From the sequence record MW822007.1: 64,000 bases of DNA; one strand, 5' to 3'. The DNA comes from Escherichia phage BF15. The translations under genes were made by a program, and so were the position numbers. Shown here in pieces: positions 2,247 to 33,395 of this stretch (position 1 is its first letter; each line of letters opens with the position of its first letter). Under the pieces are notes generated by a model. It was not told the origin of the DNA. It was given only the letters and a program-made list of their open reading frames with translations, and did no database searches.

Positions 2247-4060
2247 TGGTGTTTAACCCTATGCATGATTTCTTTATTTTTACCGAGATTAAATCCGCGT
2301 TCGTTCGGATTTCCCAAATAACCACATGTTCTTCTTATGGTATTCATCTTTTTAGGATCAGTTTCTCCACAAATAGAACAAACAAATCCGTTTTCAGTAG
2401 GAGTCATTTCATGGGTACTTCCGCATGTAAAACATTTATCTACTGGCATATTAACACCAAAATAATCTAAATGTTGTGCAGCATAATCCCACACGGCCTC
2501 AAGACCTTTCAAGTTATTTTTCATATCAGGAAGTTCAACATAAGAAATGTGACCACCTGTCGCAATGAAATGATACGGCGCTTCACGAGAAATCTTTTCA
2601 AACGGAGTAATATTTTCTTCTACTGAAACATGGAAACTGTTAGTGTACCAACCTTTATCGGTAACATCTTTTACGCTTCCATATTTTTCCGTATCGAGTT
2701 TACAGAAGCGATAACAAAGGTTTTCAGCAGGAGTCGAATATAAACTAAAAGCAAATCCAGTTCTTTCAGTCCACTGTTTAAGATGAGCATTCATTTTAGT
2801 TAAAATTTCCTGTCCAATATCACGACCGACAAGAATATTCAATTCGTGAATACCAATGTATCCTAAAGACACTGAACTTCTACCGTTTTTAAATAACTCA
2901 ATTATGTCGTCATCAGGTTTAAGACGAACCCCGAATGCACCTTCTTGGTAAAGAATAGGAGCAACAGTCGCTTTAACTCCTTTTAAGGAACTAATTCTAC
3001 ACATCAAAGCTTCAAAACATAAATCCATTCGTTCATTAAATAGCTCAACAAATTTCTGTTCATTGAACTGTGTTCCAATATAAGAATCTAACGCGATGCG
3101 AGGAAGATTCAGTGTTACAACACCAAGATTATTACGTCCATCAAGAATTTCATTACCAGTCGAATCTTTCCATACGCTCAAGAAACTGCGGCAACCCATT
3201 GGAGAAACAGGAACAGATGAACCAGTGATAGCTTTATTGTTCTTAGCCGAAATGATGTCAGGATACATCCTTTTGCTTGCACACTCTAGAGCAAGCTGCT
3301 TAATATCATAGTTCGGATCGTCTTTATAAAGATTAACACCCTCTTCAACGAACATAACAAGCTTAGGGAAAATAGGAGTTATTCCATCACGACCAAGACC
3401 TTTAATACGATTTTTCAGAATTGCTTTCTGAATCATTCGTTCAGTCCAGTCAGTTCCCGTACCAAATGTAATTGTTACAAAAGGTGTTTGCCCGTTTGAA
3501 CTAAAGAGAGTATTTACTTCATATTCATAAGCTTGGAATGCATCGTATACGTCTTTTTCTGTTTTAGATTGAGCATAATTCAACGCATCAGCGATTTGCC
3601 ATTTTTCTGCATCCTCAATATGTTTTGCATAGGTGCGTTTAACATAAGGAGAAAGTACTTTATCTACATTCGCAAAAGTCGTTCCGCCGTATTGGTGAGA
3701 AGCAACCTGTGCAGTAATTTGTGCCATAATTGCAGTAGCAACGCCAATTGATTTAGGAGTTTCAATCTGCGCATTACCGAGCTTAAATCCGTTCTCAAGC
3801 ATTCCTTTTAAATCTACTAAACAGCAATTAGTAAATGGAAGAGCAGGGGAATAATCAATATCATGGAAATGAATAATTCCGCTTTCATGCGCTTTCATAA
3901 TAAAAGACGGGACCATATTTTTGGCAATGTGTTTAGACACAATACCAGCCATAAGGTCCCGTTGAGTTGGAAAAACACGAGAATCTTTATTAGCATTCTC
4001 GTTTAAAAGGTCTTTATCAGTTTTATGAATCAATCCTTCAATTTCTTTTTCAATTGTCAT
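2243..4060 (-). CDS. nrdD: anaerobic ribonucleoside-triphosphate reductase, intron-less
   Basis: 605 aa continuous ORF; glycyl-radical enzyme; C-terminal Cys cluster CFTCGS...CSICG. Confidence 0.9.
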   Translation of the reverse strand: MTIEKEIEGLIHKTDKDLLNENANKDSRVFPTQRDLMAGIVSKHIAKNMVPSFIMKAHESGIIHFHDIDYSPALPFTNCCLVDLKGMLENGFKLGNAQIETPKSIGVATAIMAQITAQVASHQYGGTTFANVDKVLSPYVKRTYAKHIEDAEKWQIADALNYAQSKTEKDVYDAFQAYEYEVNTLFSSNGQTPFVTITFGTGTDWTERMIQKAILKNRIKGLGRDGITPIFPKLVMFVEEGVNLYKDDPNYDIKQLALECASKRMYPDIISAKNNKAITGSSVPVSPMGCRSFLSVWKDSTGNEILDGRNNLGVVTLNLPRIALDSYIGTQFNEQKFVELFNERMDLCFEALMCRISSLKGVKATVAPILYQEGAFGVRLKPDDDIIELFKNGRSSVSLGYIGIHELNILVGRDIGQEILTKMNAHLKQWTERTGFAFSLYSTPAENLCYRFCKLDTEKYGSVKDVTDKGWYTNSFHVSVEENITPFEKISREAPYHFIATGGHISYVELPDMKNNLKGLEAVWDYAAQHLDYFGVNMPVDKCFTCGSTHEMTPTENGFVCSICGETDPKKMNTIRRTCGYLGNPNERGFNLGKNKEIMHRVKHQ

Positions 4061-20067: not shown

Positions 20068-20605
20068 TTACTATTTCCAAAAGTTTATTATTTTTAAGGT
20101 AATTAGCCTTTTCTAGGACTTCAGAAGCATATTTAGAACCAGCTTTAACATTCCATCCCGAATTATAAGAGGATATTGCTTTTCTTATATCACCCTTATG
20201 TATATTTAACCAATAAGAAAGTTCAATGTACGCCCAGGAAGCTGAATTGGATCGTTTATTCAACATTCTTTTTATTTCAGCATCGGTCATATTATAACCA
20301 AGTTCCTTAACTCTTGCTCGCATAGTAGGCAAATAATTTTGGAACATTCCGTAGGCGTGATGCTTTGGTTTAGATTTTAAATTAACTCCGCCAGAGCTTT
20401 CTTGCCATAAAATAGCAGCCATTATATGACCTAATCCGCTCTTGTGGATATTTTTGTGTGTTTTATATTTTCCATCCTTAGAAAACTGTTCCCCGAATTG
20501 ATACGCGTAACGCATGTTATCGAGTTGGACATTACTGAAAGTATGCTCGGAGCTATGTGCCATCATTGAAATGGCCAATAGACCAGCGAGTAGTGCTTTT
20601 CTCAT
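20060..20605 (-). CDS. vs.1: secreted lytic transglycosylase-like protein
   Basis: signal peptide; SLT-like motifs WQESSGG, YGMFQ, SYNSGW. Confidence 0.6.
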   Translation of the reverse strand: MRKALLAGLLAISMMAHSSEHTFSNVQLDNMRYAYQFGEQFSKDGKYKTHKNIHKSGLGHIMAAILWQESSGGVNLKSKPKHHAYGMFQNYLPTMRARVKELGYNMTDAEIKRMLNKRSNSASWAYIELSYWLNIHKGDIRKAISSYNSGWNVKAGSKYASEVLEKANYLKNNKLLEIVND

Positions 20606-20612
20606 GCTTACC

Positions 20613-21074
20613 TCATTGAGTTTTAATTACTGCTTTAGAAGCCTTTCCTGGTAAACGACGACTGTTAATAATTGCCATCCTGCATTGAAGCGACGGGTCT
20701 TTGAACTTCGCATTAGGTTTACAAACTGTAAATCCAAGCCAAAGATTTCCATCTGTGATTTCTAAACGTCCAGGACGATATTCAACCCCATCAATAAAAT
20801 CCTCGTCAATGTCAGGACGCGGAGGCATACTCAGGAATTCATTAACTTCTAAAACATGGTCTTTTATTTTATGGAATAATTCAAAAACGTATGTCTCATC
20901 AATCTCCCGTTGAATTGCGCGATCAAGAAGATGTTGAGAATATTTTAGATGAAACGATGAGACCCCTGCTGCTTTTGATGCCTCACGAATCTCATTGTTA
21001 ATTTGACGAAACTCCGACTCAAAGTGACGACGAAGCTTATTTCGACGGATAAAAACTTCTGTGTTGATAGTCAT
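20613..21074 (-). CDS. regB: probable RegB endoribonuclease
   Basis: 153 aa, the length I recall for T4 RegB, in the expected slot between vs.1 and vs.3. Confidence 0.45.
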   Translation of the reverse strand: MTINTEVFIRRNKLRRHFESEFRQINNEIREASKAAGVSSFHLKYSQHLLDRAIQREIDETYVFELFHKIKDHVLEVNEFLSMPPRPDIDEDFIDGVEYRPGRLEITDGNLWLGFTVCKPNAKFKDPSLQCRMAIINSRRLPGKASKAVIKTQ

Positions 21075-21101
21075 GTTATTCTCCTCTTAACTGATAGAAA
21101 A

Positions 21102-21131
21102 ATTATACCACAGTCAAGAGGAAAAGTAAAC
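21102..21131 (-). promoter_or_regulatory. early promoter (GTTTAC, 15 nt, TGGTATAAT)
   Basis: consensus match. Confidence 0.5.
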
Positions 21132-21133
21132 AG

Positions 21134-21412
21134 TTATTCTTTAAATCTAATCAATTTATTCATAGACTTTGAAACTTCTGCACGAACCTCATGTAGATTT
21201 TTGAGCTGTTCAAGACGCTGCGTATAGTAAGCAATTTCATCTTCTTCGAGACAGTCCTGTGAATCTTCTTTAAGATAACGTGCATAGTCCTGAAAAGCGT
21301 TACGAACTACTTCCTGGAAGTCATCAAGACTTTGAATTTTCTTAGGAGCAGCAGATACACGACGAGGGGCAGTATAATACTCATAACCAAACCCTGCGCT
21401 TAATTGAGCCAT
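21134..21412 (-). CDS. vs.3: hypothetical protein
   Basis: start at ATG with GAGGAA SD ([13 protein letters not shown]). Confidence 0.45.
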
Positions 21413-21678
21413 TAGTATTTTTCCTCTGGTTGGAACACTGCACGACAAGCCCACATACTGGCTTCTTTGAGTTTCGTTTTAGCAATAGTTAACTGATCGA
21501 GGCTTTCGGCGTAATTCTTCGCGAGTTCATCATCTTCACAGCTATCAAATGCTTCCCAAAATTCATCGTATAAAGCATCAAAGATAAGTCCTAAACGAAC
21601 TTCAGCGTCTTTAATAGCATTTACTTTACCGATTTTTTCGTCGGTATGTGGCTTATAACCTTTAATATCTTCAATCAT
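21412..21678 (-). CDS. vs.4: small protein in the vs.4 slot; candidate Acb2-like cyclic-nucleotide sponge
   Basis: 88 aa from ATG with GAGGAAG SD; assignment by synteny with T4 vs.4. Confidence 0.4.
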
Positions 21679-21892
21679 ATTTGACTTCCTCACCAGTACA
21701 TAAATCGTATTCAACTAAACGAATAGGTTCATGAATGCCATATCCCTGAACAGAAATTTCTGTAGTAGGATAAATTCCATTAATATCACCCATGTTCCAT
21801 GCTTCGTTAAATTGCTGTTCGCCTGAATTACTAAACCATTCGGCGAAAGCATTTAGCACATCTTCAGAACCTTCAATAATTATCTTTGCCAT
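21671..21892 (-). CDS. vs.5: hypothetical protein
   Basis: 73 aa. Confidence 0.4.
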   Translation of the reverse strand: MAKIIIEGSEDVLNAFAEWFSNSGEQQFNEAWNMGDINGIYPTTEISVQGYGIHEPIRLVEYDLCTGEEVKYD

Positions 21893-22254
21893 TACAAACT
21901 CTCGGTAAAGGTACGAGCGATAACGTCGCGCTGCTGTTCCGGAGTCAGAGAGTTAAAGCGAACTGCATAACCGGATACACGGATGGTCAGCTGCGGATAT
22001 TTTTCCGGATGCTTAACTGCATCTTCCAGAGTTTCACGACGCAGCACGTTTACGTTCAGGTGTTGACCACCTTCAATTTTAACTGTAGGCTGTTGCTCAA
22101 TTTCAATTTCACGGGCATGCAAACCGTAGAAAATTTCTGGGTCTACAAAAGAGTCCTCTTTAAAGGTTTTAGAGACAATAATTCGTGCTTGAATACCATC
22201 TTCAAAATAAATAGTACCTTTATGTGTGCCTTCAAGAATTTGATATGCTTTCAT
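21892..22254 (-). CDS. vs.6: autonomous glycyl radical cofactor (GrcA/YfiD-like)
   Basis: C-terminal ~60 aa carry the glycyl-radical signature [25 protein letters not shown]. Confidence 0.8.
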
Positions 22255-22261
22255 ATAAACC

Positions 22262-22642
22262 TCAATTAGAAAATAAATTTATCCAAGATTGTTCTTTAAT
22301 TAAAAATGGCTCAGAATCATATGCCATTAAACTCTGTGTGATTAGTCCTTTAAAAGGCCCATCAATAAATTCCATGGTAAAATATGGAATTTTATTCATT
22401 AGCCGTGCATTAGGAGCAGTACATAAAACTCTGCATCCTTTGAATACACCTTTTTGTAATTTGTATTGCTTGGGATAAAATTCGCTCAAAATGTTGTTAT
22501 TTGCCAAAATTTCAAAATGATTTACCAATTTATTTTTAATAGTTTTTGGCGAAAAATAGAGATATTCGAAAAGCTGAGTGTCTGTCATCATTGCATTCCG
22601 ATTACGAAAAACTGTGGACGAGTAATACCACCAATACAACAT
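22262..22642 (-). CDS. vs.7: hypothetical protein
   Basis: 126 aa; start overlaps the upstream ORF by 55 nt. Confidence 0.4.
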
Positions 22643-23127
22643 TTAATATTACAGCAGCAGTGTACAGTGTCAATATGGACACTATAAATCTTATCCATAT
22701 CAGGAGATTTGACAGGCTCGTCAATTATATACAAAATTCGCGAAAGCGATAAACCTCTGAACTTGCTTCCTTTATTACCAATAAAACTGCGTACAGAATC
22801 AGTAAATAAACGAAAACGTATATCATCATTAGAATAACGCGAAAATTCCTTTTTAATGTTATTTGCAGAAATTTTAGCGTAAGCTGAAGTATTAGAAAGA
22901 ACAATAACTGTTCCGCCATCATACAACCAATTAGCAGCAAAGTTAGTCACAGCAATTGATTTACCGGATTGACGCCCACCATCTAGTCGAAGTGTGCAAT
23001 ACTGTTTAAGTAAGTCTTCAAATGGCGGGATATATTCGTTTTTACAAATTTCTTCTACTCTAGCATCAGAATGGTGTGTAAAAGCATTCATCAGGGATAG
23101 ATAAGGTCCAGTTAAAAATGTTCTCAT
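22588..23127 (-). CDS. vs.8: P-loop protein with Cys-rich tail
   Basis: Walker A-like GGRQSGKS; C-terminal HCCCNIKCC. Confidence 0.4.
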   Translation of the reverse strand: MRTFLTGPYLSLMNAFTHHSDARVEEICKNEYIPPFEDLLKQYCTLRLDGGRQSGKSIAVTNFAANWLYDGGTVIVLSNTSAYAKISANNIKKEFSRYSNDDIRFRLFTDSVRSFIGNKGSKFRGLSLSRILYIIDEPVKSPDMDKIYSVHIDTVHCCCNIKCCIGGITRPQFFVIGMQ

Positions 23128-23240
23128 TTAGTTTCTCTTTTAGGTTGGGCCATTCCGTGGCGCATGAATTGTCCATTTCTGTATTTACCCCTCCAAGTAA
23201 TTATGAATATACTATCACAATTCTAGGAGAAAGTAAACTG

Positions 23241-23543
23241 TTATTTACCTTTAATTACTTTAGCTGCTTCGATAGCCGCTTGCTGAAGGTCATCCATAGA
23301 CATACCGAATTTAGAAGCAAAGTTATCAATTTTCTTTTCGACAGCATTCAAAGGCTTGGCCTGTTTACCTTCATTAGCGCCAGGAAGAGCGAGAATACGC
23401 TCTTTGTCAATATAAAGGCTTACAAGTTTCTTACGGTCTTTATCGGACAAATCATGAAATGAATGGGCCTTTTTATTTATAGCGGCTTCTAATTTACCTG
23501 CACTCACTCGCGCTTCAGTAATAAATTCTTGATATGTTTTCAT
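23241..23543 (-). CDS. ipII: internal protein (IPII-like) with capsid targeting sequence
   Basis: MKTYQEFITE-A leader with gp21-type cleavage motif; 100 aa. Confidence 0.7.
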   Translation of the reverse strand: MKTYQEFITEARVSAGKLEAAINKKAHSFHDLSDKDRKKLVSLYIDKERILALPGANEGKQAKPLNAVEKKIDNFASKFGMSMDDLQQAAIEAAKVIKGK

Positions 23544-23584
23544 ATGTTTCCTTTAAATGTAAATAGGTCTGAGTATTATCTTTA

Positions 23585-24163
23585 TTAGGAATTACGGGCT
23601 GCATTAGCAACGGCGTAAGCGTACTGGACATTAGCGTCTTTAAACGTACCTTTAGAGGTATCTATTTCTGCCTTAAAGCCGCCTTTAGCCATAACATCGG
23701 CAAATTCTTTACGGAAAGCCATTGCATCAAGACCTTTCCATGATGATTTATGCTTGGCAAATTCAAGACCAGCGTAGTTGACAGCCTTAGCTAATTTATT
23801 ATCAATAACCCATTTACCGGCTTTAGGCACAAACTTCGGGCCTTTTTGTTTAGAGAACAGTTTTAAATTCCAGCGACGAAGGTCACTGTCGGCTTTAACA
23901 AAAGCTGCGTCTAAGTTACTAGCAACAACATCTTCAATATGAGCAAATTTAAGTCCGTCAACTTCAATATTTAGATCGTTACGCCAGCGAAGTCCTTCCC
24001 AAGCGAAGGCTTTAAAGTCGGAAGCCTTTGTAGCTAAGTACCGTTCAATAGGAGCTGTTTTAGGGTCAAAGCCGTTTCCCGATCGGTAGGTCCACTCATC
24101 TTTATTAATGCCTTTGGCCTTTACTATAGAAGCTTCGGCAATAAATTCTTGATAGGTTTTCAT
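23585..24163 (-). CDS. ipIII: internal protein (IPIII-like) with capsid targeting sequence
   Basis: MKTYQEFIAE-A leader; 192 aa. Confidence 0.7.
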   Translation of the reverse strand: MKTYQEFIAEASIVKAKGINKDEWTYRSGNGFDPKTAPIERYLATKASDFKAFAWEGLRWRNDLNIEVDGLKFAHIEDVVASNLDAAFVKADSDLRRWNLKLFSKQKGPKFVPKAGKWVIDNKLAKAVNYAGLEFAKHKSSWKGLDAMAFRKEFADVMAKGGFKAEIDTSKGTFKDANVQYAYAVANAARNS

Positions 24164-24191
24164 GTGTTTCCTTGTTTGTTTTGATAGAGTA

Positions 24192-24221
24192 ATTATACCA
24201 TATTAATACTTAAGCGTAAAC
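24192..24221 (-). promoter_or_regulatory. early promoter (GTTTAC, 15 nt, TGGTATAAT)
   Basis: consensus match. Confidence 0.5.
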
Positions 24222-24224
24222 CGT

Positions 24225-24485
24225 TTAAGCTTTACCGCCAGAAATAATTCCGAAGTTGTTAAAATCATATCCAATATCGTCAACATCTACTTTAGGACTT
24301 GCTACAACATAAGCAATTTCACTACGTTTTGCACAGGTGTTGATTTCTTTACCATCGCCACCTAAGAAAGAATACCCATTACGTTTTAATGAGCCAAAGT
24401 CTTCCGCATCACCAATGAAAGCTTTAACTTTAAATTTAGAACCTTTGGCATCTGCTTCAACGATAAATTCTTGATACATTTTCAT
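24225..24485 (-). CDS. novel internal-protein-like gene with capsid targeting sequence
   Basis: MKMYQEFIVE-A leader; 86 aa, Gly-rich body. Confidence 0.6.
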   Translation of the reverse strand: MKMYQEFIVEADAKGSKFKVKAFIGDAEDFGSLKRNGYSFLGGDGKEINTCAKRSEIAYVVASPKVDVDDIGYDFNNFGIISGGKA

Positions 24486-24491
24486 TTTTCC

Positions 24492-24595
24492 TTAGTAAAT
24501 TGATTTACCAAAGTATTTGTACCAAGTCGGACGTTGATCAATTTTTTCATCTAAGCGTGCTTGATTTATCGCAATGGACGCTTCGGACGGGTCAT
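24492..24595 (-). pseudogene. denV: denV remnant: start codon and last ~33 codons joined out of frame
   Basis: GGAGG-N7-ATGACCCGT (MTR) then stop after 9 codons; in the +1 frame ...[30 protein letters not shown] matches the T4 endonuclease V C-terminus as recalled. Confidence 0.6.
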
Positions 24596-24621
24596 AATTT
24601 CCTCCAAGTAGTTGATGAATG

Positions 24622-24652
24622 TATAGTATCAAAACCCTTGGAGGAAGTAAAC
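24622..24652 (-). promoter_or_regulatory. early promoter (GTTTAC, 15 nt, TGATACTAT) of the denV remnant
   Basis: lies inside the N-terminal part of track ORF 24492-24689. Confidence 0.45.
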
Positions 24653-24654
24653 AA

Positions 24655-25895
<1,241 letters not shown>

Positions 25896-31978: not shown

Positions 31979-32287
31979 CTATTTTATTCCGCGTGATGCA
32001 ATTGTATTCTGTCGTTTAGCACCAGTTTGTTTAAAGTCATGATTGTCGATTTGATCGGTACGAGCAACTCCGAATGATGATTTAATCTTAGCTTTAGATC
32101 CTTTAGTTATAGAAATAAACATCTCGGAAGACCCTTTCTTAAAGTCCGATGCGGATACTTCAACGCCGTTCTTAGCAAGTGACCTCAGAATTGCCTCCGC
32201 GTACTCATCATCAAGACTCGCTTGAGTATTAATAACGAATGTCTTTGGTGCAGCCGCTTCATTGATAAATTCTTTGAAAGTTTTCAT
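31979..32287 (-). CDS. internal-protein-like gene (ipI locus) with capsid targeting sequence
   Basis: MKTFKEFINE-A leader; 102 aa basic body. Confidence 0.6.
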   Translation of the reverse strand: MKTFKEFINEAAAPKTFVINTQASLDDEYAEAILRSLAKNGVEVSASDFKKGSSEMFISITKGSKAKIKSSFGVARTDQIDNHDFKQTGAKRQNTIASRGIK

Positions 32288-32347: not shown

Positions 32348-32620
32348 TCATTTTAAATAAATTGCGTATTTTTTATAACCCGCTGACTCATGACGAAGAC
32401 CCTTATCATTAGCAAAACGCTCAATGTTGTTAATTTGATTCTGGTCAAGTTCAGAGATGTCAAACACGAAAAAGTTACGTTTGTTACCAACTGTTACATA
32501 GTCAGTTAAATCAATATCATATAGGTAATTGATGTCAGCAATCAAAGTCTTGACAGCTTTGCTAATTTTTACTTTTTCGTTAAAAGCAGCTTCATTGATA
32601 AATTCTTTAAATGTTTTCAT
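32348..32620 (-). CDS. internal-protein-like gene (ipI locus) with capsid targeting sequence
   Basis: ATG with GGAG SD gives the MKTFKEFINE-A leader; the track ORF starts at an upstream TTG. Confidence 0.6.
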   Translation of the reverse strand: MKTFKEFINEAAFNEKVKISKAVKTLIADINYLYDIDLTDYVTVGNKRNFFVFDISELDQNQINNIERFANDKGLRHESAGYKKYAIYLK

Positions 32621-32656
32621 TTTATTCTCCAATCACTCATTTGTTTTGATAGGGTA

Positions 32657-32698: not shown

Positions 32699-33395
<697 letters not shown>

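Follow-up and report, generated by a model that had tools for sequence, protein, structure and literature searches.

A probable orthologue of T4 vs.4 (acb2), encoding a predicted cyclic-dinucleotide sponge, in Escherichia phage BF15

The gene at positions 21412..21678 (minus strand) of the analyzed window, a 64,000-nt stretch of Escherichia phage BF15 DNA (MW822007.1), is almost certainly the orthologue of T4 vs.4 (acb2), encoding the predicted dinucleotide sponge of a Tequatrovirus coliphage. The preliminary description had proposed, on position and size only, an Acb2-like sponge in the vs.4 slot and named a lack of detectable similarity to the Acb2 family as the result that would count against it; a clear similarity was found, as the encoded protein is 94.3% identical to T4 Vs.4 and matches both the Pfam domain PF24729 and PHROG 717. 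It also equates T4 Vs.4 with Acb2, which sequesters CBASS signalling nucleotides, in agreement with the published data (PMC10097602, PMC10312549, PMC12657218). Public databases and papers already cover the protein with its structure and mechanism, down to the exact allele. The gene and its neighbours considered below are as follows.

20613..21074, minus strand: regB, endoribonuclease (99.3% amino acid identity to T4 RegB; Pfam REGB_T4, 230 bits)
21134..21412, minus strand: vs.3 homologue, 92 aa (98.9% amino acid identity to T4 Vs.3)
21412..21678, minus strand: vs.4/acb2 coding sequence, predicted anti-CBASS cyclic-dinucleotide sponge (open reading frame, T4 match, Pfam, PHROG, synteny)
21685..21691, minus strand: Shine–Dalgarno-like GAGGAAG, within the 3' end of vs.5 (read from the sequence)
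21671..21892, minus strand: vs.5 homologue, 73 aa (open reading frame, synteny)
22262..22591, minus strand: vs.7, 109 aa (same tightly packed gene string)

The open reading frame comprises 267 nt including the TAA stop codon, starts with ATG, and encodes 88 amino acids; it occupies exactly the coordinates given in the preliminary description, which had left the strand unmentioned. The GAGG core of its Shine–Dalgarno sequence ends 9 nt before the ATG, and T4 carries an identical sequence at the equivalent position before vs.4. T4 Vs.4 begins with M-(I/S/A)-IEDIKGY, as do almost all of 38 related-phage homologues, and given these homologue starts and the Shine–Dalgarno sequence before the ATG, 88 aa is the right length of Acb2. 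The longer form in the mechanically produced list of frames, which begins at a TTG codon at 21714 and spans 100 aa, was rejected: this start falls inside the vs.5 coding sequence, and the homologues as well as the crystallized T4 protein start with MIEDIKGY. Relatives as distant as approximately 50% identity retain the reading frame; this and the low dN/dS against T4 (see below) show that the open reading frame is real and has not arisen by chance.

The BF15 protein and T4 Vs.4 (AF158101.6; crystal structure with cGAMP, PDB:7UQ2) are identical at 83 out of 88 residues. A search of all PDB chain sequences yielded one strong match, namely, chain A of 7UQ2 (“Vs.4”), aligned end to end with E=4.4e-53, and two weak ones (E of about 0.09) to Acb2 of the Pseudomonas phage PaMx33 (“p26,” 8H2J/8IXZ); the weakness of the latter is expected, since the identity between Acb2 of T4 and that of PaMx33 is only about 24% (PMC10312549). 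The Pfam family PF24729 Acb2_Tad1_hairpin (“Acb2/Tad1, hairpin domain”) was matched with 71 bits against the gathering cutoff of 27, and PHROG 717, which has been used to define and enumerate Vs.4 homologues (Jenson et al., PMC10097602), with E=5.6e-32. No NCBIfam model matched Acb2 or Acb1, which is uninformative, as this library is aimed at bacterial and archaeal annotation.

Structure prediction agrees with the sequence matches. The single-sequence AF2 model (pLDDT 87.2) has helices at residues 11–45 and 50–81, that is, the all-helical hairpin fold of the Acb2 family, albeit with unreliable fine detail; its rmsd to 7UQ2 is 6.5–6.9 Å, making it usable for coarse topology only and not for contacts. 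Among PDB fold matches of this model, 7UQ2 ranks first (TM 0.74), followed by PaMx33 Acb2 (8H2X/8H2J, TM about 0.71), the lower-ranked matches being generic helical-hairpin noise.

The allele is not new: among 50,697 phage records searched with tblastn, 1231 carry an acb2 homologue, and 59 of these encode an Acb2 at least 99% identical to that of BF15, with complete identity, e.g., in Escherichia phage slur08. In the Tequatrovirus vB_EcoM_P8, the syntenic 267-nt gene is annotated as “anti-CBASS protein 2 (acb2),” while most deposited records label acb2 “hypothetical protein.”

In order to assess function, we considered the residues whose roles in T4 Vs.4 have been established by mutagenesis, ITC, ultracentrifugation, and crystallography (PMC10097602). 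T4 Vs.4 is a hexamer binding three molecules of 3'3'-cGAMP with Kd of about 30 nM (Jenson et al., PMC10097602) or about 84 nM (PMC10312549). The pocket sits between two protomers, with Tyr8 and Phe82 stacking on the bases, and Tyr8, His11, Lys23, and Arg79 forming hydrogen bonds and salt bridges (PMC10097602). Mutations of Tyr8, Phe82, Leu29, Ala66, Ala73, or Ala77 abolish inhibition of the CapV phospholipase, F33A destabilizes the hexamer, and T12I, S74N, and A77I were recovered as inactivating mutations in a screen (PMC10097602). All cGAMP contacts (Tyr8, His11, Lys23, Ser74, Arg79, Phe82) are identical in BF15 and T4, and so are the hexamer-interface residues Leu29, Phe33, Ala66, Ala73, and Ala77, as well as Leu60 and the helix cap Thr12. 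The conservation extends beyond this pair: in an alignment of 40 distinct Acb2 sequences of T4-like phages (BF15, T4, and 38 distinct sequences from IMG/VR), Tyr8, His11, and Lys23 are invariant, while Ser74, Arg79, and Phe82 are present in every intact sequence. From the 94% identity and the intact pocket residues, we infer that the BF15 allele would sequester 3'3'-cGAMP with high affinity and inhibit CBASS in vivo.

The same comparison bears on the ligand spectrum. T4 Acb2 binds neither cA3 nor cAAG, which has been attributed to an unkinked helix and to Tyr37, Ala57, Leu60, Asp61, and Thr64 (Cao et al., PMC10312549). These five residues, together with Thr68, are identical in BF15 Acb2, and since the residues blocking cA3 are the same as in T4, a T4-like spectrum is expected. 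Thus, BF15 Acb2 is predicted to bind dinucleotides only and no cyclic trinucleotides.

The five differences from T4 Vs.4 (E13D, L44F, N46S, C50D, and F52L) all fall at naturally variable positions. Across the 40 T4-like sequences, residues 1–33 and 66–88 are nearly invariant, whereas residues 37–65 are hypervariable and contain indels. At position 13, Asp is the majority residue (25 Asp, 10 Glu), and positions 44, 46, 50, and 52 belong to the hypervariable part, around the hairpin turn of the AF2 model. C50D removes the second cysteine of the T4 C47-x-x-C50 pair, which is variable within the genus itself, as a close relative (L005) has Tyr50. At the nucleotide level, acb2 of BF15 and T4 differ by 13 synonymous and six non-synonymous changes, and the resulting Nei–Gojobori dN/dS of 0.09 indicates that the gene is under purifying selection. 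Segment 37–65 also holds the positions that line the cyclic-trinucleotide pocket in other Acb2 proteins.

The distribution of these substitutions raises the question of whether the patch at the hairpin tip (L44F, N46S, C50D, F52L) makes the BF15 orthologue behave differently from T4 Acb2. Such a patch might shift the affinity or the range of ligands, lower the uptake of decoy nucleotides, alter the stability of the hexamer, or help the sponge evade a host factor that recognizes it. We consider this very unlikely. Four of the five substitutions do lie within the nine-residue span 44–52, a significant clustering (P of about 0.009 under random placement), in a segment that is hypervariable while the rest of the protein is nearly invariant and that contains the residues shaping the second pocket, which accommodates trinucleotides, in other members of the family (PMC10312549); moreover, sponge specificity is expected to be under pressure from decoy systems, e.g., Panoptes (PMC12657218; bioRxiv 10.1101/2025.08.24.671296). 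However, none of the four positions is a published ligand-contact, hexamer-interface, or cA3-occluding residue, all of which are unchanged, and in the AF2 model, rough as it is (6.5–6.9 Å off 7UQ2), the patch maps to the turn of the hairpin, a long way from the dinucleotide pocket with its N- and C-terminal residues. In addition, all reported Panoptes escapers are loss-of-function or binding-site mutants, with no tip mutants among them (PMC12657218), and the low overall dN/dS also speaks against a changed function. There is thus little reason to believe that L44F/N46S/C50D/F52L constitutes a circulating Acb2 haplotype with an altered ligand spectrum, decoy avoidance, or altered recognition by a host sensor; were it so, the variable center of T4-like Acb2 would be an arms-race surface rather than a neutral linker.

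The genomic context supports the orthology with vs.4. Both at the scale of 5 kb around acb2 (96–98% identity to many isolates including T4) and at that of 24 kb (about 96% identity to the best matches, phage W143 and others), the DNA resembles that of T4 relatives, and by these matches the BF15 window belongs to a T4-like coliphage of the genus Tequatrovirus. The gene order is that of T4 (AF158101.6) gene for gene, namely, tk.4, vs, vs.1, regB, vs.3, vs.4, vs.5, vs.6, vs.7, vs.8. The preliminary description had arrived at the vs.4 position by counting open reading frames after regB, and this count holds: regB is followed by vs.3, acb2, vs.5, and vs.6, as in T4. Recognizable domains in the cluster are the macro domain of tk.4, the SLT domain of vs.1, and the glycyl-radical GrcA-like domain of vs.6, whereas no Pfam family was found for vs.3, vs.5, or vs.7. 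As small genes beside a known anti-defense gene, vs.3 and vs.7 are candidates for further anti-defense functions.

Adjacent genes overlap at their ends. The TAA stop codon of acb2 overlaps the ATG of vs.3 by 1 nt (TAATG), the stop codon of vs.5 overlaps the start of acb2 by 8 nt (ATGATTGA), and the overlap between the vs.6 stop and the vs.5 start is 1 nt. This tight packing on the minus strand, with overlapping stops and starts, implies that vs.5, acb2, and vs.3 are co-transcribed, and translational coupling of acb2 with its neighbours is possible.

The vs.5 gene itself differs between BF15 and the T4 reference. In AF158101.6, vs.5 encodes 58 aa (3216..3392 of the T4 locus, L001) and ends 36 nt upstream of vs.4, a 1-nt deletion at column 58 of the alignment having shifted the frame. 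Of 987 matching phage records, relatives at 44–72% identity included, 986 encode the 73-aa form at full length, and for this reason the T4 reference Vs.5 looks like a frameshifted exception, either a mutation of the laboratory strain or an old sequencing error.

A scan of region 20500..24500 for sigma-70-like promoters yielded 12 sites, with 12.0 expected by chance; the best ones on the minus strand are at 22673..22646, upstream of vs.7, and at 21130..21102, upstream of regB. Regular-expression searches of the minus strand in region 21000–24300 for middle (MotA-box) and late (TATAAATA) promoters identified no canonical MotA promoter and a sole late motif, at 23481, inside ipII; neither type was seen just upstream of acb2. 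As no promoter was assigned, the timing of BF15 acb2 expression is taken from T4, where expression of both vs.4/acb2 and 57B/acb1 is reported to be predominantly middle/late (bioRxiv 10.64898/2026.03.30.715471).

The lack of an assigned promoter might point to a decaying or unexpressed remnant without present function, and natural loss of acb2 may indeed occur, since a frameshift divides the gene into two reading frames at three of the 46 acb2 loci of related IMG/VR contigs. For BF15, we regard this reading as very improbable: the frame is intact and full length, it is preceded by a good Shine–Dalgarno sequence and tightly coupled to vs.5 and vs.3, its dN/dS is low, all functional residues are present, and the identical protein occurs in other viable isolated phages, e.g., slur08. 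The split loci themselves (L044, 601–872; L046, 601–878; L047, 601–872) may have arisen through errors in assembly, or they may be natural alleles that have lost their function, which would be of advantage on hosts of the Panoptes type.

The second anti-CBASS gene of T4 is found 11 kb from acb2, and its start overlaps the stop of 57A as TAATG:

32699..33154, minus strand: acb1 (T4 gene 57B; 98.7% amino acid identity to T4 gp57B; PDB:7T26/7T27 “Acb1,” E=5.6e-62)

As judged from these matches, BF15 carries both known T4 anti-CBASS genes, a predicted Acb2 sponge and a predicted Acb1 enzyme, the two-pronged equipment described for T4 (PMC10312549).

Several other loci of the window depart from T4. 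The denV gene (endonuclease V), located in T4 between vs.8 and ipII, is missing from that slot (23127..23241 of the window). Its only trace is a segment of 42 aa (24495..24620, minus strand) with 74% identity to DenV residues 96–137. This segment, probably the remnant of a pseudogene, lies within a 65-aa open reading frame (24492..24689) that has internal-protein-like genes on one side and the lysozyme gene e on the other. The vs.8 homologue, too, is shorter than in T4, at the N-terminus (179 aa vs. 219 aa), and no counterpart of T4 ipI was detected in the window at E<=1e-5. Four extra small open reading frames are present on the minus strand (24225..24485, 24655..24951, 31979..32287, and 32348..32632); three of them resemble IpII and IpIII, internal head proteins of T4, in starting with MK(T/M)(Y/F)(Q/K)EFI, and the remaining one (24655..24951) starts with MKTYSEFL. 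This suggests that BF15 has a different set of injected internal proteins. The internal-protein locus is known to vary in T4-like phages, and anti-restriction functions are possible.

Taken together with the T4 data, the orthology suggests the following mechanism. By homology, the 88-aa helical hairpin would form a hexamer whose three pockets each lie where two protomers meet. There, Tyr8 and Phe82 would stack on the purine bases, and Tyr8, His11, Lys23, and Arg79 would bond the ligand, with Ser74 nearby. The pockets would hold 3'3'-cGAMP and other cyclic dinucleotides at affinities of tens of nM without degrading them, so that the CD-NTase signal would be removed during infection before CBASS effectors, such as the phospholipase CapV, become active; abortive infection would be avoided, and the phage would complete its cycle. 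For the BF15 allele, the hexameric state, the binding and the range of ligands, and the inhibition of CBASS in vivo are features that we infer from the experiments on T4.

Hosts are known to counteract such sponges. Cap2-mediated conjugation of cGAS boosts cGAMP synthesis (PMC10097602), and in the Panoptes system (OptSE), the capture of the decoy 2'3'-c-di-AMP by Acb2, for which the T4 protein has Kd of about 62 nM, releases a toxic membrane effector (PMC12657218). On E. coli with a type II CBASS whose Cap2 is inactive, plating of T4 lacking vs.4 drops about 50-fold. On hosts with Panoptes, which fires once the decoy is sequestered, Acb2 would be a liability. The combination of Acb2 and Acb1 predicts resistance to many CBASS systems with dinucleotide signalling and sensitivity to decoy-guard systems, e.g., Panoptes. 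This may be used in predicting host range and in annotating phages for therapy; the assignment adds nothing new to biology, its practical value being better annotation.

Among the known systems, the closest one is T4 Vs.4/Acb2 (7UQ2; Jenson et al. 2023, PMC10097602), which shares with the BF15 protein the length of 88 aa and the slot between vs.3 and vs.5. The differences are the five substitutions and the state of vs.5, which in BF15 is intact (73 aa) and overlaps acb2, whereas in T4 it is 58 aa long.

Acb2 of PaMx33 (“p26”; 8H2J, 8H2X, 8IXZ; Huiting et al. 2023; Cao et al., PMC10312549) belongs to the same family and has the same fold. The alignment spans residues 4–85 with identity of only 23–26%, approximately, and the key Tyr and Lys are conserved, as Tyr11 and Lys26 of PaMx33 correspond to Tyr8 and Lys23 of BF15. 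It is a hexameric dinucleotide sponge, as the BF15 protein is predicted to be by homology. However, PaMx33 Acb2 accepts cA3 and cAAG as well, for which it has a second pocket dependent on Arg67 and Thr74. BF15 and T4 have Asp61 at the position of Arg67, which would place the BF15 protein outside the trinucleotide-binding subgroup (PaMx33/JBD67 type), characterized by this Arg and by a helix kink that opens the cA3 pocket; the D61R mutant of T4 Acb2 still does not bind cA3 (PMC10312549).

Tad1, an anti-Thoeris sponge, has in common with the BF15 protein the Pfam “Acb2/Tad1 hairpin” domain and the sponge principle. Membership in Tad1 was rejected, as the BF15 protein is limited to the hairpin (88 aa), and Tad1 chains were absent both from the PDB sequence matches at E<=1 and from the best-ranking fold matches. 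Finally, Acb1 (T4 gp57B, PDB:7T26) serves the same goal, the removal of the CBASS signal, but it is not related to Acb2, and instead of sequestering cyclic nucleotides it degrades them enzymatically (PMC10312549).
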